Assembly (NCBI GenBank): GCA_023489275.1
Contig: JAMDDD010000024.1
Span: 10,788-74,787 of the forward strand
DNA length: 64,000 nt
From: Actinomycetota bacterium
GTDB taxonomy: Bacteria > Actinomycetota > Thermoleophilia > BMS3ABIN01
Direction: 5' to 3'
The number at the start of each line of letters is the position of its first letter. The first letter of the stretch is position 1. Position numbers and translations under genes: made by a program. The notes under the pieces are model-generated. The model searched no databases. It saw nothing but the letters and a program-made list of their open reading frames with translations, and was not told the origin of the DNA. Shown here in pieces: positions 5,483 through 61,597 of the stretch.

Positions 5483-6570
5483 CGGCGCATCCCCCGGGCG
5501 CGCATGCGTCGCCGCATCACGTCCTTCATCTTGTCGGCGGACTCCTCACGAATCTGGCGACCAGTCAAACTGAGAAAAACGTCGTCAAGGGTAGGCTCCC
5601 TGACCGAGACCGATATGATCTCCGTCGAAAGCTGCCGCACCAGCTGCGGCAGCACCGTCCGCCCGCTGGGCACCTCCAGGCGGATGCTTTTCTCTGCAGG
5701 CGCATTGGCTTCGCCAGCCCCTTCGATGACACTGGCATCGAAGCCAAAAATCTCCTTGATCTCATCCCGGGCCGCCACGGCGTCGACCGCATGCAGCGTG
5801 ATGATGTCGCCACCGATGCTGTGTTTGAGATTCCCGGGAGTGTCCAGCGCCACGATCTTGCCGTGATCGATGATAGCGATCCGGTCGCAGTTTTCGGCTT
5901 CATCCATGTAATGCGTTGTCAAAAAAACCGTGATGTCATACTGCTGCTTCAGTTCGTGCACAATCTCCCAGATCGAGCTGCGCGTCTGGGGATCAAGGCC
6001 GATGGTGGGCTCGTCCAGGAAGAGTACATGCGGATAGTGCATCAGCCCCCGGGCGATCTCCAGCCGCCGCTTCATGCCGCCGGAGAAGGTCTCCACCTTG
6101 TCACGGCCACGCTCGCTGAGACCGACCATTTCCAGCACGCGGCTCGCACGCTCGTCCCGTTCGTTGCGGGGGACGTTGTAAAGCATGGCGTGAAACTCGA
6201 GATTCTCGCGGGCGGTTAACTGGTCGTCGAGCGTCGGATCCTGAAAAACAATGCCAATCGACTGGCGCACCGCGTCCTGCTGGGTGATGATATCGTAGCC
6301 GTTGAGCACCCCGCGCCCGGCAGTGGGCTTCAGCAGCGTGCAGAGCATGCTGATGGTGGTGGTTTTGCCGGCGCCGTTGGGTCCCAGGAAGCCAAAGATC
6401 TCCTTGCGTCCAACCGTAAAGCTGACTTCGTCTACAGCCCGGAGGCCGTTAAAATCGCGCGTCAGCCGTTCGACCTCGATGATGGCCCCGGCTCCGGCCG
6501 GCGCGGCCTTGCCGGGCTGGCCAAAAAGATTTTCCGCCGTGACATCATCTTCCATGTTAGTGGCGCTCAC
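5479..6570 (-). CDS. ABC transporter ATP-binding protein (DrrA/CcmA-like)
   Basis: Walker A (GPNGAGKTT), ABC signature (LSGGMKRRL) and Walker B (LFLDEPT). Confidence 0.85.
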   Translation of the reverse strand: MSATNMEDDVTAENLFGQPGKAAPAGAGAIIEVERLTRDFNGLRAVDEVSFTVGRKEIFGFLGPNGAGKTTTISMLCTLLKPTAGRGVLNGYDIITQQDAVRQSIGIVFQDPTLDDQLTARENLEFHAMLYNVPRNERDERASRVLEMVGLSERGRDKVETFSGGMKRRLEIARGLMHYPHVLFLDEPTIGLDPQTRSSIWEIVHELKQQYDITVFLTTHYMDEAENCDRIAIIDHGKIVALDTPGNLKHSIGGDIITLHAVDAVAARDEIKEIFGFDASVIEGAGEANAPAEKSIRLEVPSGRTVLPQLVRQLSTEIISVSVREPTLDDVFLSLTGRQIREESADKMKDVMRRRMRARGMRR

Positions 6571-6872
6571 TTCTTTTCTCCCCGGGCAATCTCCTCCAGC
6601 TTGCTGAGCCTGGCGATGGCCCCCGAAACAAATTCCGTCACTCGCTCGGCTTTCATCACGACCATGGAGTGTCCGTCCCGGTGACTGGAAAAAATCAGCA
6701 GCTTGTCACCGGCACTGATATTAAGCTTCTGCCGGGCTTCAGCCGGTATCACGATCTGCCCCCGCTCCCCGACCGTCGCCGAGCCAAAAAAAGACGGCTC
6801 GCTGGAATGTGAATCCTTTTGTTTTGGCAATGCTGAATTACTCTCGCATGAATGAATAATATGATTAATCAT
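6567..6872 (-). CDS. AbrB/MazE/SpoVT-type DNA-binding domain protein
   Basis: The GQIVIPAEARQKLNISAGDKLLI swapped-hairpin motif is present. The gene overlaps the ABC ATPase start by 4 bp and so probably acts as the operon's regulator. Confidence 0.55.
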   Translation of the reverse strand: MINHIIHSCESNSALPKQKDSHSSEPSFFGSATVGERGQIVIPAEARQKLNISAGDKLLIFSSHRDGHSMVVMKAERVTEFVSGAIARLSKLEEIARGEKK

Positions 6873-8857: not shown

Positions 8858-9097
8858 GCAACATGAATACCCGTTTTTAATAATACTTCAAACCAGTAAA
8901 ACGGATACTGGACACTTGATTCTGGACGCTGGATTAATAATCTGTATTGATTATCTGAACTGTGACAGGAATAGTCACTGAGAAAAAACAAGCGATTGGC
9001 CGGTCCGGGCGCCTCCAAAACTGCTTCCGATCTTAAACTTTTTGGGCCGCACACTGCGGCCGCCCTCAAAAAGTCCGATCCCCTTGGAAAGCCCTGT

Positions 9098-9715
9098 CTA
9101 GGAGCTTTTGCCTCCACGAAGCTGTTCAAGCAGGCCGAAGGACGCCCGGGCACGGTGACTGATGCGATTTTTTTCATCGGCAGAAAGCTCGGAAACAGTT
9201 AACTCATAACCCTCAGGGATAAAAATCGGGTCGTAGCCAAATCCAAATTCTCCATGGGGCTCGCGGGCGATCCGTCCCTCGAGAATTCCGGTGGAGCGCA
9301 GTTCCTCTCCTCCCGGAGAGACCGCGACTATCTCACAAACAAAGCGCGCCTGGCGATTTGTGTCTTCACCCAGCTCGGCCAAGAGCTTATTGACATTATC
9401 CACATCAGTGGCGTTTTCCCCCGCGTACCGCGCTGAAAATATTCCCGGCGCGCCCGCCAGCGCCGCCACTTCAATGCCGGAGTCGTCCGCCATGACCCAG
9501 GGAATGTGACCATCAAGCACGCTGGCGTGGCTGATGTACTGGTTCCTGACCGCCAGCGCCTTCAGGCGCGCATTTTCATAAAAGCTGCTGCCAGTCTCTT
9601 CGGGCAGGTTAAAGCTCTCCGGCATCGGCTCCACGCGAATACCGGCGAGGAGTGACCCGAACTCGCGGGCTTTATTGGCATTGGCGGAGGCAAGTGTGAT
9701 GAATTTCGGAATCAT
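9098..9715 (-). CDS. rdgB: RdgB/HAM1 non-canonical purine NTP pyrophosphatase
   Basis: ITLASANANKAREF N-terminus and a FGYDPIF motif; lies directly downstream of rph, the classic pairing. Confidence 0.85.
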   Translation of the reverse strand: MIPKFITLASANANKAREFGSLLAGIRVEPMPESFNLPEETGSSFYENARLKALAVRNQYISHASVLDGHIPWVMADDSGIEVAALAGAPGIFSARYAGENATDVDNVNKLLAELGEDTNRQARFVCEIVAVSPGGEELRSTGILEGRIAREPHGEFGFGYDPIFIPEGYELTVSELSADEKNRISHRARASFGLLEQLRGGKSS

Positions 9716-9799
9716 CGATAAAAAAGTTTCAGATTTTCTGGTTTCTGGTTCTTATAATTGGTTTTTAACTCGAAATCAGAAACTCAAAACCAGAAACGT
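9716..9799. repeat. AT-rich imperfect inverted repeat in the rph–rdgB intergenic region
   Basis: TTTCTGGTTTCTGGTT ... AAACTCAAAACCAGAAA arms. Confidence 0.35.
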
Positions 9800-10528
9800 T
9801 CATCTTGAGGCGGTGACTTTGAGTTGCGCGGCCGCTATCTGCTCGATGCCGGCTTGAGCCAGATCGATCAGCCGGTCGAGAGTCTCGCGGGAAAAGGGAA
9901 CCCGCTCCGCGGTCGCCTGCAGCTCTACCAGCTCTCCGGAGCCGGTCATAATGACATTCATGTCAACATCGGCGTTACAGTCCTCGACGTAGCTTAAATC
10001 AAGCATTGGCTCTCCGCCGACAATGCCGACACTGACCGCCGCGACAGAGTCGCGAAGCGGTATCTCCTTGATATAGTCCTGGTCGACCAACCGGGCGAGA
10101 GCCAAATATAAGGCAACATAAGCACCCGATACGGAAGCGCACCGGGTGCCGCCGTCGGCTTGGATGACGTCGCAATCAATCCAGACGGTGCGGTCGCCCA
10201 GAGCTTTCGTGTCGACGATACTTCGCAGGCTGCGGCCGACAAGCCGCTGGATTTCAACCGTGCGGCCTTCCTGCTTGCCGCGGACCGCTTCCCGGACCTT
10301 CCGGTCGTGAGTGGCTGCGGGGAGCATACTGTATTCAGCCGTCACCCAGCCGCCGCGCCCCTGTCCCCGCAGCCATTTGGGCACGCTGTCCTGAACGGTG
10401 GCGTTGACGATCACTTTTGTCTTGCCGGCCTCTATCAGAACGGAGCCGTCGGCCCATTCGATGAAGCCGGGCGTGAATTTTAGCGGCCTGATTTCATCCA
10501 CCGGCCGCTTGTCTATACGTTCCGCCAT
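9800..10528 (-). CDS. rph: Ribonuclease PH
   Basis: The RPLKFTPGFIEWADGSVLIEAGKTKV...GGTRCASVSGAYVAL pattern is typical of RNase PH. Confidence 0.9.
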   Translation of the reverse strand: MAERIDKRPVDEIRPLKFTPGFIEWADGSVLIEAGKTKVIVNATVQDSVPKWLRGQGRGGWVTAEYSMLPAATHDRKVREAVRGKQEGRTVEIQRLVGRSLRSIVDTKALGDRTVWIDCDVIQADGGTRCASVSGAYVALYLALARLVDQDYIKEIPLRDSVAAVSVGIVGGEPMLDLSYVEDCNADVDMNVIMTGSGELVELQATAERVPFSRETLDRLIDLAQAGIEQIAAAQLKVTASR

Positions 10529-35159: not shown

Positions 35160-36536
35160 ATGGAGTCTTCGCCGACAGTTGCCGCGATTTCCACGCCGCT
35201 GGGAGCGGGCGCCATCGGGATCGTGCGCATGACCGGATCTGAGGCGATCGACATCTGCGACCGCATATTTACCGGTCGACGGCCGCTCGCCGAAGCTGCC
35301 TCGCATACGCTGAATTACGGCGTCATTCTTGATCCAAAAACTAAAGAGGCAGTCGACGAAGTGCTTGTCGGCGTCATGCGGTCGCCGGCCAGTTACACGC
35401 GCGAAGATATTGTTGAAGTCAACTGCCATGGCGGTCCCGTCGTTCTGCAAAAAATACTCTCGTTTTTCCTGGATGGCGGCGCGCGGCTGGCCGGCCCCGG
35501 AGAATTTACCAGGCGCGCTTTTTTAAACGGCAGGCTGGATCTGGCGCAGGCAGAGAGCGTCGCGCAGATTATTGCCGCCAAGACCGGCGCTGGTTTGCGT
35601 GTGGCAATGTCACAGCTTGGCGGGGGGCTTTCGGAGACAATCAAGTCTCTGCGCTGGTCGATCCTGAACGTCCTGGCGGCGGTAGAGGCGGGAATCGACT
35701 TCTCGGACGAAGACATTGAGGAGCTGGACAAAAGCGAGGCGGAAGCAAGGCTGGAGCAGATCAATCAGCAGATCGGGGAACTCGTTAATACGGCATTTGC
35801 GGGCCGCGTTCTAAATCAGGGCGTCCGGACCGCGATTGTCGGTCAGCCCAATGTCGGCAAGTCCAGCCTGCTAAACGCGATGCTGATGCGAGAGAGAGCC
35901 ATAGTCACCGAGATCCCGGGCACAACCCGGGACACAATCGAAGAGGTGATAAACGTAAAAGGCATCCCGCTGCTTTTAATCGATACCGCGGGGTTACGGC
36001 CGCACGCGGACACCGTCGAGAAGATTGGCGTCGAGCGCAGCCTGAGGGCGATGAAAGAAGCGGATCTCATCCTTTGCCTTTTTGACGGCAGCCAGCAGGA
36101 GAACGATCATGACCGGGCGCTGCTGACATCTGTACCGGCGGAAAAAACCGTTTACGTAATTAATAAGTGTGACAAATTTCGTGGACGTCAACCCGTGTTT
36201 AATCTGGGCCTGCTGCCATCGCAGCCGGTAATAATCTCCGCGCTGACCCGCCAGGGTATGCGGGATTTGACGGAAAAAATCGCCGCAGCTGTCCTGGGCG
36301 GGTCTATTCCGCCTCTGGAAAACCCGATCGTGACTCAGGAGCGCCACCTCCGGCTCCTGACAGAAGCATCTTCTTTTCTGAACAGAGCAGCTCAAGGCCT
36401 GCGGGTTGGGCTTGGGGAGGAGCTGATCGCCGAGGAGCTGCGTTCGGCCCTGTCAGCCCTGGATGAAATCACCGGGGAGGAGTTCATCGACGATCTCCTC
36501 GATACTATCTTTCACGAATTCTGCATCGGCAAGTAA
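35160..36536 (+). CDS. mnmE: tRNA modification GTPase MnmE
   Basis: G-domain motifs (GQPNVGKSS, DTAG, NKCD) and the C-terminal CIGK. Confidence 0.9.
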   Translation: MESSPTVAAISTPLGAGAIGIVRMTGSEAIDICDRIFTGRRPLAEAASHTLNYGVILDPKTKEAVDEVLVGVMRSPASYTREDIVEVNCHGGPVVLQKILSFFLDGGARLAGPGEFTRRAFLNGRLDLAQAESVAQIIAAKTGAGLRVAMSQLGGGLSETIKSLRWSILNVLAAVEAGIDFSDEDIEELDKSEAEARLEQINQQIGELVNTAFAGRVLNQGVRTAIVGQPNVGKSSLLNAMLMRERAIVTEIPGTTRDTIEEVINVKGIPLLLIDTAGLRPHADTVEKIGVERSLRAMKEADLILCLFDGSQQENDHDRALLTSVPAEKTVYVINKCDKFRGRQPVFNLGLLPSQPVIISALTRQGMRDLTEKIAAAVLGGSIPPLENPIVTQERHLRLLTEASSFLNRAAQGLRVGLGEELIAEELRSALSALDEITGEEFIDDLLDTIFHEFCIGK

Positions 36537-36557
36537 ATACCGGGAGCGGCTCGTATC

Positions 36558-37616
36558 TTGCATGTAAATTCCTGTAATTCCCTCGATTTCCATGACGTTG
36601 CCGTCGTTGGCGCCGGACCGGCCGGCTGCGAAGCATCTCTTGCTGCTGCTGCTGCCGGAGCCAGCACCATTTGCCTCACGATCAACCTCGATGCCGTTGC
36701 CTTGCATCCCGCGAACCCGGTGCTGGTTGATGGAACCGGCGATCCGAGGATGCGGCTTCTGGAAGAGCTTCACGGGGCGGGCGCCGCTCTGCCAGGGCTG
36801 TTGAAGGAGCCGGGAGCATCCATCGAAAGCGGCGCCAGGACAGTGATCGACCGGCGCGTACTCGGGCTTGCCTACAAGGAACGCCTTGAGTCTGCTAACG
36901 GGCTGTCCCCAAGGCAGTCGCTGGTGACTTCGATTTCCCCTGGCAAAGGAATCTGGAATGTCGCAACCAGCCTCGGAGAAACCTTCCGGGCTGCAGCTGT
37001 TGTTGTGGCTGCGGGAACATACCTGAATGGTGTAGTCACAGCGGGAGGGGTCAGCACGCCGGGCGGAAGGCATGGCGACATCCCGGCAAATGCGCTCGCC
37101 TGCTGCATCAAAAGCCTGGGGATAGCAATGGAGCGCACCACAGCGACCAGTTATCCCCGTCTGGACTCGCGCAGTGTCGATAACGCCGGCGACGGATTGG
37201 TGCCGCCCGACGAGGCCGTTCTGGGCGAACTTTACGGCTCGGATGTCGATGTGGATGGGAACGGGGCAGCGGCTTTAAAGCAGCTGCGGCGGAGGGGCGG
37301 CTATTCCGAAGGATGGATTACCCGGTTGGGCTATACCGTGCATCACCACATTTTAACTGCTGATCAAGTTGATCCAACCCTGCAGGCTTTGCGCCAGAGC
37401 GGCCTTTTTTTTGCCGGCAAGGCCGCGGGCAGTTGCAACTATACCGAGGCAGCCGCCCTGGGCTTTGTCGCCGGAAAAAACGCGGCTGCCCTGGCCACAG
37501 GGGAAGCTGATATAAAGTTGACTACAAATCATATATTTATTACTAAGCTTTGCCGCGCGGTCTCCCGGCAGCAGTCACGGCCGGTCACTATTCGCATTCC
37601 GCCGCCCGGTTGTTAG
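36558..37616 (+). CDS. Half-length MnmG/GidA-like FAD-binding protein (paralog lacking the catalytic Cys and the C-terminal MnmE-binding domain)
   Basis: DVAVVGAGPAGCEASLAAAAAG Rossmann motif, AAGTYLNGVVTAGG and SGLFFAGKAAGSCNYTEAAALGFVAG align to MnmG blocks. MnmG's SCNP is replaced by LHPANP. The product is 352 aa against 629 aa for the true mnmG next door. Confidence 0.55.
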   Translation: MHVNSCNSLDFHDVAVVGAGPAGCEASLAAAAAGASTICLTINLDAVALHPANPVLVDGTGDPRMRLLEELHGAGAALPGLLKEPGASIESGARTVIDRRVLGLAYKERLESANGLSPRQSLVTSISPGKGIWNVATSLGETFRAAAVVVAAGTYLNGVVTAGGVSTPGGRHGDIPANALACCIKSLGIAMERTTATSYPRLDSRSVDNAGDGLVPPDEAVLGELYGSDVDVDGNGAAALKQLRRRGGYSEGWITRLGYTVHHHILTADQVDPTLQALRQSGLFFAGKAAGSCNYTEAAALGFVAGKNAAALATGEADIKLTTNHIFITKLCRAVSRQQSRPVTIRIPPPGC

Positions 37617-37631
37617 CATATTACAGATTAA

Positions 37632-39521
37632 ATGACAAACCATTGCAGCAACTCGTCAGCTTCCTCTTTTTCCGTTTTCGATGTTGCCGTCGTCGGTGGC
37701 GGACACGCCGGATGCGAAGCAGCTCTGGCGGCTGCGCGCATGGGGTGTGACACACTCCTGCTTACTGTTAACCTGGAAAAAATCGCACTGATGCCCTGCA
37801 ATCCTGCCGTGGGCGGGGTCGGCAAGGGTCAGCTGACGAGGGAAATCGACGCCCTTGGGGGCGAACAAGGGCGTAACACAGATCGGTCATACATTCAAAT
37901 GAAAATGCTCAACACCGGCAAGGGTCCGGCGGTGAGGGCGCTGCGGGCCCAAGCAGACAAAAAGGTGTATGAAGATCAAATGAAAAAAACTTTGGCGGCC
38001 GAGCCCAGCCTGAAGATACTGGAGGCAATCGTTTCGGAAATTATTGTTTCACGTGAAACAATTTCCGGCGTTAAACTGATTGATGGCAGCGTCATACCTG
38101 CAAAAGCAGTTGTTTTAACGTGCGGGACCTTTCTCCGGGGTAATCTCGTCATTGGCGATATAAAATTTCCAGGTGGCAGAATGGGAGAACCTCCCGCCAA
38201 AGATTTGTCTTTGAGCCTGATCCATTACGGGATCGAAACCGCTCGCTTTCAATCAGCAACGCCTCCTCGAATCGACGCGCGATCAATAAATCCGAACCGA
38301 ATGAAGGTCGAGCCCGGCGACCCGAAACCGGCGATGTTCTCGCCGTTTTCGACAGCGCGTGATGAAAATCAGATTCCCTGTTATTTAACGAATACGACGT
38401 CAAAGACGCATGAAGTTGTCCGGAAATATTTGCATTTATCCCCTTTGAAAACAGGCTCCGTTAGTGGAAAAGGGCCCCGTTACTGTCCATCAATTGATCG
38501 CAAGGTGATTAATTTTCCGGATCGGGACCGCCATCCCGTTTTTGTCGAGCCCGAAGGACGGCACACTAATGAAATGTACCTGCAGGGACTCACCACGAGC
38601 ATGCCGGTTTCCATTCAAGAGTCAATTATTCGCTCAATTCCGGGTTTGGAAGGAGCATGTCTGATGCGCCCGGGATATGCAGTGGAGTACGATTATATTC
38701 CTCCAAGTCAGCTTAAGCTTTCTCTTGAAACAAAAAGAATCTCCGGACTGTTCCTGGCAGGGCAAATAAATGGTACGTCAGGATACGAAGAGGCAGCCGC
38801 GCAAGGCCTGATTGCCGGGATTAACGCTGCAAAGCATATTTCCGGTAACGAGCCGCTAATCTTAAAACGCAGCCAGGCTTACATAGGCGTTCTCATCGAT
38901 GACCTGGTTACTAAGGGAATCGATGAGCCTTATCGAATGTTCACGTCACGGGCCGAATACCGGCTGCTTCTAAGGCATGACAATGCTCACCGCCGCCTGA
39001 GCGGTATCGGCAACCATCTCGGGCTCATCTCTAATCAAAAAGCAGCGATGATTGCCGAAACAGCCGCGAAAATTAACGCGATTATTAAAAGCTATTCTAC
39101 GAGAAGAATACAGCCGAACGATTCAATCAACGATTTTCTCACCTCGCTTGGCACTTCCCCGATCCACGAACCGCAAACCATGGCCCAACTACTCAGACGT
39201 CCGGAGGTCGAGATTGCCGGCTTAATCAAAGCCGTCGGTGATTCAACTCAGCTCGATGACGCCGCCTCCGCGGCGGAAACAGAAATTAAGTACGAGGGTT
39301 ATGTTCAACGTGAGATCGAAGATATAGAAAAACGGCGCGGGCTTGAAAATTCGGCGATCCCCAATGACATTTCCTATGAAGACCTGAACAGCATTTCTAT
39401 CGAGGCGAAAGAGAAGTTGGCGAAGGTGCGACCGTCGACCTTGGGGCAGGCGTCACGGATTGCCGGCGTATCTCCAGCCGATATCGCCGTCCTGTCTCTT
39501 TATCTTAAAGCATTACAATGA
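37632..39521 (+). CDS. mnmG: tRNA uridine 5-carboxymethylaminomethyl modification enzyme MnmG (GidA)
   Basis: Full-length protein with [32 protein letters not shown] and [21 protein letters not shown] blocks. Confidence 0.9.
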
Positions 39522-40225
39522 CATTGATCGATAAAACGAGTTTGAGAAAGATTCTCCTCAGGCCGCAAATTTCCTTGCTCGCCCGCTTTCTGGATCTGCT
39601 TGCTGAAGCGAATAAAAAAATTAATTTAATCGGAGCCAGCTCTTCGGAACAGATTATTGAAACTCATTTGCTGGATAGTCTGAGCCTGCTTGATTTTGAA
39701 GAGGTTAGGGATTCCCGCCAAGCAATCGATGTTGGCAGCGGCGCCGGCTTTCCCGGCATTCCCCTTGCGATTGCGCTACCCAATCTCAATTTGACCCTTC
39801 TTGATTCAAATGCGAAAAAATGCGGTTTCCTCTCTCGAGTAACCGGCATTCTGGGCCTCTCAAATGTCGAAGTCGTTTGGGAACGGGCCGAGACTGCCGG
39901 GCGCTCCCGCTTCCGCGACAATAACGATTTAGCCCTTGCCCGGGCCCTCGGCCCTCTGCCTCTGACTCTGGAATATGTTCTTCCCTTTGTCGAACCGGGC
40001 GGCCATTGCGTCCTTCAAAGGGGGCGACGTCAGACGGGGGACACCGATGTTGCCGCCGATGTGGCCTGTCTGTTTTCGGGGGAACTTGACCGTGTCACAC
40101 TCGTTAAGCCTTACCCCTCTGCGCAAAACCTGCATGTATGGGTATTTACAAAGGTGGGAAAAACACCGGCGGCCTTTCCGCGACGGCCGGGCCAGGCAAA
40201 AAAACGGCCTCTCGCAGCCTCCTGA
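39518..40225 (+). CDS. rsmG: 16S rRNA (guanine527-N7)-methyltransferase RsmG (GidB)
   Basis: [19 protein letters not shown]-binding motif; overlaps the mnmG stop. Confidence 0.85.
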
Positions 40226-40295
40226 CGCGTCCCTTTCAATTACGCTATATGGAAGCCTTCTGGCCAGGGCCGCCTGCATCTGATAAAATTTCTTC

Positions 40296-41090
40296 GTGCG
40301 GGCGAACACTTCTATTCAGGCAAGAACCGGCTTGGGAAAAACCTATGCCATCGCCAACCAAAAGGGAGGCGTTGGCAAGACCACCACTTGCGTCAACACC
40401 GCCGTGTGTCTGGCGGAAGCAGGCGCAACCGTCCTTTTGGTTGATATCGATCCTCAATGTAATGCAACCCATGGAATCGGCATCCATGATGTTCCCGGCC
40501 CTACCATCTACGATGTTCTTGTTAACGGGGCCAGGATCGAGTCGGCCATAATTGGAACCCAAATTCCGCATCTTTTCCTGGTTCCATCTACTCCGCATCT
40601 GGCGGGCGCCGAGGTTGAGCTGCCTGAGCTCTCGGACCGCGAATTCATTCTTTCTGGCAAGCTCCGCTCCATGGCGGCCGATTTCGATTATTTGTTTATT
40701 GATTGCCCGCCCTCTCTGAGCCTGCTGACCCTAAACGGCCTCGTGGCAGCGGACAAGGTTATTATCCCGATCCAATGCGAATATTTCGCCCTTGAGGGAC
40801 TGGGCCAACTGCTATCAACGGTGGAAGCGGTACGCGGGAATCTTAATCCCAGTCTGCAGATTGCCGGTTTGCTGATGACTATGTATGACGCTCGTACCAA
40901 TCTATCAACCCAAGTGGTAGAACAGGTGCGGTCTCACTTTCCAGAGTTGACTTATAAAACCATAATACCGCGTAATGTTCGGTTGAGCGAAGCGCCGAGC
41001 CATGGCATGCCGATCTCCCGTTACGATCCTACTTGTGCCGGCTCTGACGCTTATTTTGATTTAGCATCGGAGGTTGTCGAACGTGAATGA
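40296..41090 (+). CDS. parA: Chromosome partitioning ATPase ParA/Soj
   Basis: Deviant Walker A (KGGVGKTT). GTG start at 40296, or TTG at 40332. Confidence 0.85.
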   Translation: MRANTSIQARTGLGKTYAIANQKGGVGKTTTCVNTAVCLAEAGATVLLVDIDPQCNATHGIGIHDVPGPTIYDVLVNGARIESAIIGTQIPHLFLVPSTPHLAGAEVELPELSDREFILSGKLRSMAADFDYLFIDCPPSLSLLTLNGLVAADKVIIPIQCEYFALEGLGQLLSTVEAVRGNLNPSLQIAGLLMTMYDARTNLSTQVVEQVRSHFPELTYKTIIPRNVRLSEAPSHGMPISRYDPTCAGSDAYFDLASEVVERE

Positions 41091-41967
41091 CAGCAAGGGG
41101 CTCGGGCGCGGCCTGGAGGCGCTGTTTAAGAATACAAATAATCAAGTTGGTCAATTGCCACCGGGCGATACCGGGTCGCTGGACTTATACCAAGAATTAT
41201 CCATTGATCAAATTAAGGGCAATCCAAAGCAGCCGCGTACGATCTTCGATGACGCCGCCCTCGCCGAGCTTGCTGATTCGCTGAAGGCGGTTGGCCTCGT
41301 GCAGCCCGTTGTTGTCCGCCGGCGGGGCAAAGAATTTGAAATTGTCGCTGGCGAGCGCCGTTGGCGCGCCGCTCGCCTTGCCGGGCTAAAAAAGATCCCG
41401 GCCATAATCCGTGAGGCAGGCGACGCCGAATCACTGGAGCTGGCTCTGATTGAAAACCTGAGCCGGGAAGACCTGAATCCAATCGATACGGCTCGGGCTT
41501 ATGCCAGCCTGCAAGAGGATTTTGGCATCACCCAGGAAGTGCTTGCCGGCAAGCTCGGCCGGAGCCGGTCTGCCGTCGCTAATACGATGAGGCTGCTGGA
41601 CCTTCCGGATGAAGTTCAGACATTGATCGAGAATGGCAAGCTCTCCGAAGGTCACGGGCGGGCGCTGCTGTCAATCCCCGACCGGCTGCGTCAGCGCCAG
41701 CTGGCCGCCAAGGCTGCTGCCAAGAGCATGACTGTCAGGCAACTTGAAGAGCAGGCAAAAAAAGAAAGCTCGCGGCGCCGGCGAAACGATTCGCGGCCGG
41801 CTCCCGTCAGCCAGGAACTCATGGACGAGGCCACTGATGCTTTATATTCTGCCTTCCGCCTGCCGGTAAAGGTTCGTTGGGCTAGCAAGGGAGGCCGGGC
41901 AGAGCTGGAGTTTGCCAGCTCTGCTGATCTTCGCCGGATCATCGGAGTGCTGGAGAAAGACCTCTGA
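41074..41967 (+). CDS. parB: Chromosome partitioning protein ParB/Spo0J
   Basis: GLGRGLEALF N-terminus, ParB box (VVRRRGKEFEIVAGERRWRAA) and an HTH. Confidence 0.85.
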   Translation: MSNVNDSKGLGRGLEALFKNTNNQVGQLPPGDTGSLDLYQELSIDQIKGNPKQPRTIFDDAALAELADSLKAVGLVQPVVVRRRGKEFEIVAGERRWRAARLAGLKKIPAIIREAGDAESLELALIENLSREDLNPIDTARAYASLQEDFGITQEVLAGKLGRSRSAVANTMRLLDLPDEVQTLIENGKLSEGHGRALLSIPDRLRQRQLAAKAAAKSMTVRQLEEQAKKESSRRRRNDSRPAPVSQELMDEATDALYSAFRLPVKVRWASKGGRAELEFASSADLRRIIGVLEKDL

Positions 41968-56149: not shown

Positions 56150-56212
56150 CAAAATCATGGTGATGAAGCTCACCATTAACCGCGCCGCGGCGCTAATGGC
56201 TTCTGCAGAAAT
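56150..56212 (+). promoter_or_regulatory. Fluoride riboswitch (crcB motif)
   Basis: GGUGAUGAAGCUCACC...AACCGCGCC...GGCGCUAAUGGCUUCUGC matches the conserved crcB-motif blocks (GAUG, AAC[CU]GCC, CUxAUGGCxUCU). It lies ~60 nt upstream of crcB. Confidence 0.7.
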
Positions 56213-56274
56213 CTGTGGAAGTTTTTTTATGCCCATATCCAGCCTGAATAGGTAAATAAAGATAGGGAGTTAAA

Positions 56275-56649
56275 ATGGAAACCGTCTTTGTAATAGGCAC
56301 CGGAGGTTTTTTCGGAGCCATCAGCCGCTACGCCGTCGCCCTCTGGATTGGTGAGCGCTGGGGGCGCAGCTTTCCGCTGGGAACGCTGGTGATCAATGTC
56401 AGCGGCAGCTTCCTCATCGGCCTGCTGATGTATGTTCTCGGCGACAAGGTGCTGGTCAACCCGCTGTGGCGCTCCTTGCTGGTGATTGGATTCCTGGGCG
56501 CCTACACCACCTTCTCCACCTTCGAGTACGAAACAGGTAATCTGTTGACCGACGGCGAACTCCTTTACGCAATGGTAAATGTCGTGGCCAGTGTCCTGTT
56601 CGGTTTCATGGCGCTCAAGACCGGCGAGCTGATCGCGAAAACAATATAG
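56275..56649 (+). CDS. crcB: Fluoride channel CrcB/Fluc
   Basis: GTGGFFGAISRY and GFLGAYTTFSTF motifs; four TM helices. Confidence 0.85.
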   Translation: METVFVIGTGGFFGAISRYAVALWIGERWGRSFPLGTLVINVSGSFLIGLLMYVLGDKVLVNPLWRSLLVIGFLGAYTTFSTFEYETGNLLTDGELLYAMVNVVASVLFGFMALKTGELIAKTI

Positions 56650-56666
56650 GAGCAAGTAGGAGCAAG

Positions 56667-57032
56667 GTGTTCACGGGTCCCGCGAAAAAACTGACAATTT
56701 ATCTGGATGAAGGGGACAAATTTCATCATAAGCCAATCTACGAGGCTGTGGTCGATATCCTCTACCAGAACCACATCATGGGTCTGAGTGTCTTTAGAGG
56801 GATCGGCGGCTACGGTTCCAATGGAGTCCTGCACACAACCAAGATCCTCGAGTTGTCAACCGACCTGCCGGTAAAAGTGGAGGCAATTGATTCCGCGGAC
56901 AAGATCTACGAAGCGCTGCCGGAGATCGCCGCGGTCGTCGAAAAGGGTCTCATTGAAGTTTCTGACACAAAAGTGATCAAATGCTGCCGTTCGAAAAAGG
57001 ATATTGGACAGAAAAAGACGCCCGATAAATAA
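56667..57032 (+). CDS. DUF190-like (PII-like fold) protein
   Basis: 121-aa protein with LTIYLDEGDKFHHKPIY. This family is a recurrent crcB/fluoride-riboswitch neighbour. Confidence 0.6.
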   Translation: MFTGPAKKLTIYLDEGDKFHHKPIYEAVVDILYQNHIMGLSVFRGIGGYGSNGVLHTTKILELSTDLPVKVEAIDSADKIYEALPEIAAVVEKGLIEVSDTKVIKCCRSKKDIGQKKTPDK

Positions 57033-59835: not shown

Positions 59836-60444
59836 ATGACTGACAACGTCTTTGAACGTTTCCAGCAGACGGGCGAAGACCTGGCCTGGAACCGCCTGAC
59901 GACCACTCACGGCGGAAACATGAGCTTGCGTCATCAGGGCCGGATGGCGATCACTACCCACTTTTCCATGCCGGGGCGGCTGCTGCCTGGTAACGTGGTC
60001 GAGATCCCGCTCAGGGAAGAACCTGACCGCTTCGCCAGCGATGCATCGTGGGACGCGCCGCTGCATCAGCTAATCTATAAATTCACGCCGGCGGCGGCCA
60101 TAATTCACGCCCATCCAGCTTATGCTGTTGCTATTTCGATGAGATGTGACATTATTACGCCCATCGATACCGAGGGCTCGGTTCTGCTCAGGGAAGTTGC
60201 GGTCGTGGCTCCGGAGGATGCCTCCAGCCGCCTCCCCCAGGTGCTGCAAACAACAGTTGCCGCGATCGTGAGGGGGCATGGCAGCTATGCCGTCGGACGC
60301 ACCCTGAACGAGGCGCTGGCTTTCACGGCGGCGATGGAATTCTCCTGCAAAGTATTGATGCTAAGCGCACGCCATGAGGCAAAGATTGACCGGGGCCGGC
60401 CGGCAGCTGAAAACGGGTTTAAGCCTGGCGACATCAGCAGATGA
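59836..60444 (+). CDS. Class II aldolase/adducin family protein
   Basis: HGGNMS...AIIHAHPAYAVAIS metal-binding His pattern. Confidence 0.75.
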   Translation: MTDNVFERFQQTGEDLAWNRLTTTHGGNMSLRHQGRMAITTHFSMPGRLLPGNVVEIPLREEPDRFASDASWDAPLHQLIYKFTPAAAIIHAHPAYAVAISMRCDIITPIDTEGSVLLREVAVVAPEDASSRLPQVLQTTVAAIVRGHGSYAVGRTLNEALAFTAAMEFSCKVLMLSARHEAKIDRGRPAAENGFKPGDISR

Positions 60445-60535
60445 AACACGAAATGACGATATCCTCACAACTTGAGAAAACTGATCGGTTTATTGATAAG
60501 ATGGCGCGGGGTAGAGACCGAGGTGGTGATAAGTA

Positions 60536-61597
60536 GTGGCAACCGGTAAGGAGACCAGGCTTACCCGCCTGGCGCATGGCTCCGGCTGAGCCTGCAAGCT
60601 AAGTCCGTCGGACTTGGAAGTGATTTTAAAGACGCTGGCGTTGCCGGCCGATCCGCGCGTTCTCGCTGGCATTCGCTCCGGCGAGGATTGCGCCGTTTTT
60701 CAGATCTCGGAGGACACCGCGATCATCCAGACGGTCGATTACTTTACGCCGATTGTCGATGACCCCTATCAGTATGGCGCCATCGCCGTCGCCAACGCTT
60801 TAAGCGATGTCTACGCCATGGGAGCCGCGCCGCTCTTTGCCTTGAACGTGGTCGGCTTTCACACAGCGGATCTGCCTCTTGACACGCTTGCCGAAATTTT
60901 ACGAGGCGGCGCCGACAAGGCCCGGGAGGCGGGAATCGAGATCATTGGCGGCCACACCGTCGATGACAGGGAACCAAAATACGGGGTCTCCGTAACCGGC
61001 CTTAGCGATCCGGGCAAGCTGATTTACAACTCAACGGCGCAGGCCGGCGATGCGCTATTTCTGACAAAGCCACTGGGGCTCGGTGTCATCACGACCGGCA
61101 TCAAGCGCGGCACCGCCAGCGATGCCGCCATCAGCCGGGCAGTCGAAGTGATGGTGCGGCTGAACCGCGACGCCTCCGAAGCGATGGTGGATGTTGGCGT
61201 CAACGCCTGCACTGACATCACCGGTTACGGCCTGCTGGGACACATGGGCGAGATGACCCGGGCCAGCGGCGTCGGCGCCCGCGTCCACTCCCGGGCCGTG
61301 CCGGTCATTCAGGCAGCCAGGGATATGATCGAGGCAGACCTGGACGCCGTCCCGAGAGGCTCGAAAAACAACCTCGAATACGTCAAGCGCTTCGTGAACT
61401 TCGATCCGGGAATCACGCAAGCGGAGAGGCTGCTGCTGGCAGACGCCCAGACTTCTGGCGGCCTGCTGATATCGTGTCCACCGGAAAAAGCAGACCGGCT
61501 GGAAAAGGCGCTGCGGAACGCGGGCACGATCACTGCTGCCCGAATCGGCGTCATGGAAGCGGAAGACGATACCGGACGCATTGACGTGGTGCCTTAG
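60536..61597 (+). CDS. selD: Selenide, water dikinase SelD; selenoprotein with in-frame UGA (Sec) at 60587–60589
   Basis: GTG at 60536 follows GAGGTGG. The translation M-ATGKETRLTRLAHGSG-U-ACKLSPSDLEVIL aligns to the SelD [18 protein letters not shown] motif, with UGA at the catalytic Cys/Sec position. The remaining 327 aa (AIR-synthase-like fold, DPYQYGAIAVANALSDVYAMGA) are SelD. Confidence 0.8.
60602..60616 (+). promoter_or_regulatory. SECIS-like hairpin 12 nt downstream of the selD UGA
   Basis: AAGUCCGUCGGACUU palindrome (6-bp stem extendable with G-U pairs). Confidence 0.4.

Follow-up and report, generated by a model that had tools for sequence, protein, structure and literature searches.

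In this study, a gene for selenide, water dikinase (selD) was analysed in the 64-kb stretch of DNA presented above (hereafter the window), which derives from an uncultured actinobacterium related to Thermoleophilia. The source was a metagenome contig (Logan SRR10244963), and approximately 79 kb of contiguous context was examined. Positions 60536-61597 of the forward strand very probably encode a full-length SelD in which selenocysteine (Sec), specified by an in-frame UGA codon, serves as the catalytic residue of the N-terminal loop. This reading is carried by the structure of the gene, the protein family, the conservation of the UGA and of the peptide upstream of it, and an apparent constraint at the RNA level on a hairpin that directly follows the codon. 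We infer the binding of SelB and the insertion of Sec at the UGA from the established bacterial Sec pathway.

Gene structure and protein family

The selD coding sequence (60536..61597, +) comprises 353 codons, including one predicted Sec-UGA, and closes with a TAG stop at 61595-61597. Its GTG start (60536..60538, +) is the sole canonical start between an in-frame TAA at 60530-60532, which closes the frame upstream, and the TGA. From this start the frame reads V-ATGKETRLTRLAHGSG, then the TGA (60587..60589, +), then ACKLSPSDLEVILKTL, and it remains open until the TAG. The predicted Sec codon corresponds to residue 18, the equivalent of Cys17 in Escherichia coli, and a Shine-Dalgarno-like GAGGTGG (60520..60526, +) was read from the sequence 9 nt 5′ of the GTG. 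Gene callers drop the catalytic N-terminus because the in-frame UGA is read as a stop. The mechanical list of open reading frames (ORFs) thus holds only the downstream piece (TTG 60614..61597, 327 amino acids), and the public Logan calls (L083, 10785-11762; L084, 2885-3862) give a SelD of 325 amino acids that starts at GTG 60620 and has no catalytic loop. An exact-protein look-up of the 327-residue ORF returned no record, and that of the adjacent aldolase led to the source contigs. Two Logan assemblies from different SRA runs matched the window with 0 mismatches over 14,165 and 5,412 bases, with the TGA and the hairpin included.

Protein searches were performed with the TGA codon replaced by Cys. 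The product scored 368.8 bits against TIGR00476, the selD equivalog (cut-off 125), with profile positions 1-310 of 311 covered; the alignment opens with position 1 of the profile, matched to residue 8 on the 5′ side of the TGA. NF002098 was matched with 338.1 bits (cut-off 299), and the Pfam domains AIRS (PF00586, 105 bits, residues 49-156) and AIRS_C (PF02769, 78 bits, residues 169-347) were both detected. The best PDB matches were SelD of Aquifex aeolicus (E 8.8e-76) and of E. coli (E 1.9e-74), and family membership is settled by this similarity to solved SelD structures. In a global alignment, the product shared 41.8% identity over 335 residues with E. coli SelD (NC_000913.3); the TGA faces Cys17 and K21 faces Lys20 (H14-G-S-G-U18-A-C-K21 against H13-G-A-G-C17-G-C-K20). 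The residues D51, D68, N87, D91 and D227 of the E. coli enzyme, which we take from SelD crystal structures to be those of the ATP and metal sites, are all identical in the pairwise alignment. The Gly-rich loop of SelD with Cys/Sec17 and Lys20 is needed for catalysis. The local U-A-C-K of the window SelD fits UxxK, which is listed as the Sec motif of SelD, a selenoprotein family with experimental verification, and the Sec of this family has been described as the catalytic residue of the N-terminal loop (PMC13188914).

The original prediction, which was made by a model from the sequence, had proposed the GAGGTGG 9 nt before GTG 60536 and the in-frame TGA at 60587-60589, and the letters and coordinates all agree. 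Its statement that the ORF track had cut selD short is borne out by the 327-residue piece and the 325-residue Logan record, and its proposal that the upstream frame belongs to SelD was confirmed by the profile alignment, which starts at position 1 and sets the TGA opposite Cys17.

Conservation of the UGA and of the downstream hairpin

The 80 closest genomic SelD loci, obtained from a scan of one genome per species, were used as relatives. The nearest was a Thermoleophilia metagenome-assembled genome (MAG; JACWAM01) with 95% amino-acid identity, followed by 12 MAGs assigned to Thermoleophilia, Gaiellales and 'Actinomycetes' (66-78%); these 13 relatives and the window form a clade of 14 Thermoleophilia-related sequences. 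The farther relatives (44-55%) included Binatia, Nitrospirota, Dehalococcoidia, Acidobacteriota, Firmicutes and others. The codon aligned to 60587 was TGA in 78 of the 80 loci, comprising every one of the 13 relatives in the clade and 65 loci from outside it, and TGC in the remaining two (L014 and L052). Judged from the alignment, this TGA/TGC alternation is a classical Sec/Cys pair.

Both flanks of the TGA are conserved (RLT..HG(A/S)G-U-A-x-K), and the peptide on its 5′ side, RLT..HG[A/S]G, is kept in all loci. Synonymous codon use in this upstream segment varies freely within the clade (five codons for Arg, four for Leu, three each for Thr and Gly, and two for His). The codons upstream of the TGA are therefore translated, because the amino acids are kept while the codons change synonymously, a pattern that marks selection on the protein sequence. 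Twelve of the 13 clade relatives have an ATG or GTG start at the corresponding position, 17 codons 5′ of the TGA. TGA acts as an ordinary stop elsewhere in the window, where it ends 22 of the 57 long ORFs, including the Pfam-confirmed mnmG, rsmG, parA and parB and the adjacent aldolase gene, and a reassigned genetic code is therefore ruled out as the explanation.

A hairpin of the type of the selenocysteine insertion sequence (SECIS) was located in the mRNA at 60599..60617 (+). In the minimum free energy (MFE) fold, 60599-60606 pairs with 60610-60617, thereby giving a stem of 8 bp including one U-G pair, with arms CUAAGUCC/GGACUUGG, a GUC triloop (60607-60609) and a dG of -8.6 kcal/mol; the loop starts 17 nt past the UGA. 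The original prediction had quoted the 15-mer AAGTCCGTCGGACTT (60601-60615, with 11 nt separating it from the UGA) as a hairpin with canonical bacterial SECIS spacing. Its spacing, loop and stability do fit the published model, and the folded stem is longer than the one quoted. The model for bacterial SECIS elements (bSECIS) specifies an apical loop of 3-9 nt, a stem of 4-16 bp, an MFE of at most -7.5 kcal/mol, a G at loop position one or two, with G or U as the usual next nucleotide, and a loop 16-37 nt away from the UGA (PMC13188914). In a simplified re-implementation of this model, the element fell within all four limits (GUC loop, 8 bp, 17 nt and -8.6 kcal/mol). When the same filter was applied to the 2,122 UGA triplets of the window, 5.5% passed, 3.4% were as stable and 0.8% were as stable and also had a GU loop; the hairpin taken alone is thus only modestly unusual. 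Rfam searches of the whole window at gathering thresholds and of 60400-60800 at E<=10 returned no SECIS or tRNA-Sec and only chance-level matches, and were uninformative.

Conservation within the clade was more telling. The fraction of synonymous differences over the hairpin codons K-L-S-P-S-D was 0.008, compared with 0.455 gene-wide, which was the lowest among 340 sliding six-codon windows, and the next-lowest windows overlap the same spot. Ser AGU, Pro CCG, Ser UCG and Asp GAC are fixed there, despite the availability of two to six codons for each. The hairpin core AGUCC-GU(C/U)-GGAC(U/C) is nearly invariant in the 14 sequences: stem positions 17-20/24-27 and the loop nucleotides G21 and U22 do not vary, and the exceptions are C23U in L009 and U28C in L005 and L010. 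This synonymous constraint suggests that the hairpin is under selection at the RNA level. In combination, the TGA at a conserved codon and the synonymous freeze over the hairpin codons are, as judged from the alignments, far beyond chance. A lower helix, UGCA/UGCA in most clade members and GCCUGCA/UGCAGGC in some, reaches back to just past the UGA. The upper stem is two pairs longer in the window and in L001.

In the alignment of 81 sequences, 66.7% of the cells at the two most frequent hairpin positions were paired, compared with 57.2 ± 0.8% after shuffling and 30-44% when the positions were slid. Double-sided changes at these positions numbered 80 against an expectation of 40.7 ± 4.7, an approximately twofold excess. 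The distal hairpin of other phyla shows compensatory changes, such as CAG/CUG to CAA/UUG and GAG/CUC. At least three registers of the post-UGA hairpin were distinguished in the alignment of the 81 loci (columns 1-54 after the UGA), and the loops nearly always start with G-U. In the clade of the window and in a few other sequences, including Acetomicrobium SelD, 17 nt separate the UGA from the loop. This distance is approximately 27 nt in Dehalococcoidia and Binatia, and it reaches 33 nt in approximately 37 other sequences, which have a 7-bp stem and a GUN loop. The 33-nt hairpin is wholly absent from the clade of the window. The Cys-form locus L014 (Binatia) keeps the hairpin of its Sec-form sister L015, and its hairpin looks like a remnant SECIS. 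Bacterial SECIS elements have been reported to vary widely (PMC13188914, PMC12013277), and the differing selD registers agree with these reports. We tentatively propose that the selD orthologues use at least three SECIS registers, with the 33-nt one prevailing in most other phyla, and that the clade has fully lost this hairpin and depends instead on a minimal element of 8 bp with a 3-nt loop, which would be a clean case of SECIS turnover within one conserved coding region; this proposal seems nearly as apt to prove right as wrong.

Selenocysteine machinery and rival explanations

Genes of the Sec pathway were sought in the window and around the selD of the relatives. ARAGORN detected no tRNA of any kind in the 64-kb window, and selU was found nowhere by tblastn in the window and the 80 loci. 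In the same tblastn survey of the 80 loci, selA or selB was located beside selD only in L052, L056, L060 and L063, and tRNA-SeC only in L052 (11651-11750, +) and L063 (323-419, +), in both cases directly beside selD. A SelB match in L064 was rejected as probably EF-Tu beside a tRNA cluster. L052 (Chthonomonadales) encodes a Cys-form SelD (TGC) with selA upstream and tRNA-SeC adjacent, and its gene content indicates that it keeps the Sec trait although its own SelD switched to Cys. For the organism of the window, we infer from the established bacterial pathway that selA, selB and selC are located elsewhere in the genome. A Pfam survey of 49 of the 57 long ORFs in the window revealed no Se-utilisation gene and showed only housekeeping genes, including mnmE, mnmG, rsmG, parA, parB, nrdR, ribonucleotide reductase, topoisomerase I and others. 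The neighbourhood of selD is syntenic across the clade (major facilitator superfamily transporter - DUF6504 - GalT-like - class II aldolase - selD - convergent GAF/PAS sensor kinase), and selD is therefore a stably inherited chromosomal gene that lies outside any sel operon here.

Several observations weigh against a Sec-decoding role for the UGA and its hairpin. The stem is invariant within the clade and thus offers no covariation there, and the synonymous constraint could also stem from a palindrome at the DNA level. In the window and L001, a G-G mismatch makes the lower helix weaker, and the local fold z-score of -1.17 is unremarkable. With E. coli SelA, SelB and SelU as tblastn queries, no match was obtained in the window. 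Likewise, selA, selB and tRNA-Sec were not found within 6.4 kb past the right end or 8.7 kb past the left end of the window, nor within ±10 kb of selD in the 13 clade relatives. A mechanical scan for TGA-interrupted ORFs in the window gave 54 candidates, of which only selD was credible; the rest were rejected as off-frame or overlapping real genes.

Two rival explanations concern the decoding of the UGA. If Cys or Trp was inserted at the UGA through near-cognate or suppressor decoding, without a Sec system, the palindrome might be a protein-binding site in the DNA, a pause element or the like. AAGTCCG-T-CGGACTT is indeed also a perfect DNA palindrome, conservation in the clade without covariation cannot tell an RNA from a DNA constraint, and the Sec machinery is a prediction here. 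However, the element occupies exactly the position required of a bSECIS and its loop starts with G-U; the change from GUC to GUU in the loop of L009 breaks the central symmetry of the palindrome and spares the hairpin; compensatory double changes in the equivalent hairpins of other phyla are an RNA-level signature; and selA, selB and tRNA-SeC adjoin a TGA-containing selD in relatives. This explanation is accordingly regarded as very unlikely. It is slightly more improbable still that the UGA is a genuine stop, with selD being a pseudogene or an N-terminally truncated gene translated from TTG 60614 or GTG 60620, although the ORF list and the Logan call give only the downstream ORF (327 and 325 amino acids) and no Sec machinery was found in the approximately 79 kb of context. 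However, Cys/Sec17, Lys20 and the Gly-rich loop around them would be missing from a product that starts at 60614, the remainder of the gene shows no damage and retains every metal-binding Asp residue, and the 17 codons 5′ of the TGA are conserved in amino acids with free synonymous change. The original prediction had itself named a pseudogene or truncated selD as the alternative, and this is contradicted by the upstream peptide, the preserved start position and the retention of the TGA in 78 of 80 orthologues across phyla.

The two other explanations concern the letters and the hairpin themselves. A simple terminator-type scan flags 60599-60617 together with its U-rich tail (AAGTGATTTT; AAGUGAUUUU, to 60626), as expected of an intrinsic terminator or attenuator inside selD. 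This tail is confined to the window and L001, whereas the other clade members have CAAACAGUGCUC or similar after an identical hairpin; moreover, 4 sites of this kind were flagged, and chance alone would give 2.1 ± 1.3. A terminator in place of a SECIS is thus scarcely credible, and the U-rich tail is probably incidental. Since TGA and TGC differ by one base and two homologues do carry TGC, a sequencing or assembly error for a Cys codon could also be considered; its probability is practically negligible given the two identical assemblies from different SRA runs and the TGA in 13 of 13 clade relatives and 65 distant ones.

In the favoured reading, with Sec as the catalytic residue, translation would begin at GTG 60536 and would not terminate at UGA 60587. 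SelB with Sec-tRNA(Sec), tethered by the apical G-U loop of the hairpin, would decode the UGA as Sec18, and translation would then run on to the TAG at 61597. Selenide and ATP would be the substrates from which the enzyme makes selenophosphate, and its flexible Gly-rich loop would contain Sec18 and Lys21 (UxxK). The synthesis of Sec-tRNA(Sec) in turn requires selenophosphate, and SelD would thus depend on its own pathway and product.

Two further observations concern genes near selD or the window edge. A 261-residue permease of the TauE/SafE family (PF01925, 158 bits) is encoded between the aldolase gene and selD, directly upstream of the latter, in 7 of the 13 clade relatives (L003, L004 at 8905-9690, L006, L007, L011, L012 at 9153-9938 and L013); it is absent from that position in the window, L001, L002, L005 and L008-L010. 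The permease could be a selD-linked transporter of Se or S anions; the list of Se-linked candidates in PMC5322559 does not contain it. Separately, an 86-residue PF11823 (Se_S_carrier, DUF3343) gene lies approximately 0.7-0.95 kb past the left edge of the window (L085 1986-2246, -; the same in L086). PF11823 is a proposed Se/S trafficking chaperone, and its gene neighbours here are a SAM hydroxide adenosyltransferase-like gene and a PAP2 phosphatase gene.

Comparison with known systems and other features of the window

The window gene resembles the Sec-form SelD of other bacteria, such as A. aeolicus, in its TIGR00476 membership, the UGA at the same position of the UxxK loop and the hairpin directly downstream within the coding sequence; SSGCAAK of the A. 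aeolicus protein was aligned with GSGUACK of the window. It differs in that selD is not clustered with selA, selB and selC and belongs to an uncultured Thermoleophilia-related actinobacterium, and relatives outside the clade share approximately 45-55% identity or less with it. Sec-containing SelD has been reported in Actinobacteria such as Rubrobacter xylanophilus and in many Deltaproteobacteria and Clostridia (PMC1794560). E. coli SelD (PDB 3u0o) shares the conserved H13-G-x-G-[C/U]-x-C-K20 but carries Cys17 (TGC) and no SECIS, whereas the window has a TGA and a hairpin. Like the bSECIS consensus and the SECIS of E. coli fdhF, the element is a stem-loop in the coding sequence right after the UGA with a small loop that starts with G-U; unlike them, it is very compact, with a 3-nt loop, a weak lower stem and no bulged U identified. 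The 11-nt spacer before the hairpin equals that of the minimal fdhF element. SelD of Acetomicrobium mobile, a member of the phylum Synergistota listed with a 'canonical SECIS' in BSepDB (PMC13326102), provides a close parallel: UGAGCAGCCAAAUUGGGUCCGGCGGACCUC gives GGGUCC-GGC-GGACCU in the same register as AAGUCC-GUC-GGACUU of the window, although the letters of stem and loop differ.

Sec-containing SelD is long established, and the present case is ordinary and does not change the general picture. Together with FdhA, SelD leads the bacterial selenoprotein families in abundance, and one survey counted 394 genes in 383 organisms (PMC5029168); among these families SelD has been ranked second by frequency (PMC5029168, PMC1794560, PMC13188914) and described as the second most expansive prokaryotic one (PMC13188914). 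Its mis-annotation is documented as frequent and routine (PMC13326102, PMC1088965, PMC5029168). The lineage (a Thermoleophilia-related clade without cultured members) and the differing SECIS registers among selD orthologues are the only aspects that are mildly new. For annotation, the true product is predicted to comprise 353 amino acids with Sec18, instead of a fragment of 325 or 327 amino acids without the catalytic loop. The lineage, with its 14 related sequences, is flagged as a likely user of Sec; other UGA-containing genes in these genomes may be split or truncated by gene callers, and the lineage probably requires selenium as a trace element. Conceivably, Sec decoding is maintained in this lineage mainly or solely by SelD.

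Other features of the window include two riboswitches. An M-box (Mg2+) riboswitch (1262-1430, +, 144.5 bits) lies upstream of the ORF at 1539-2804, and a fluoride riboswitch (56150-56212, +, 47.3 bits) is followed by crcB and a DUF190 gene (56667-57032). The crcB gene was called in L083 at 6440-6814, which corresponds roughly to 56275-56649 of the window, and the minus-strand ORF 56227-56655 of the mechanical list was rejected as spurious. A cluster of the origin-proximal type (35160-41967, +) comprises mnmE, a short GIDA-like paralogue (36558-37616), mnmG, rsmG, parA and parB, and rpsF-ssb-rpsR-rplI-dnaB are located just past the left end of the window (L085).

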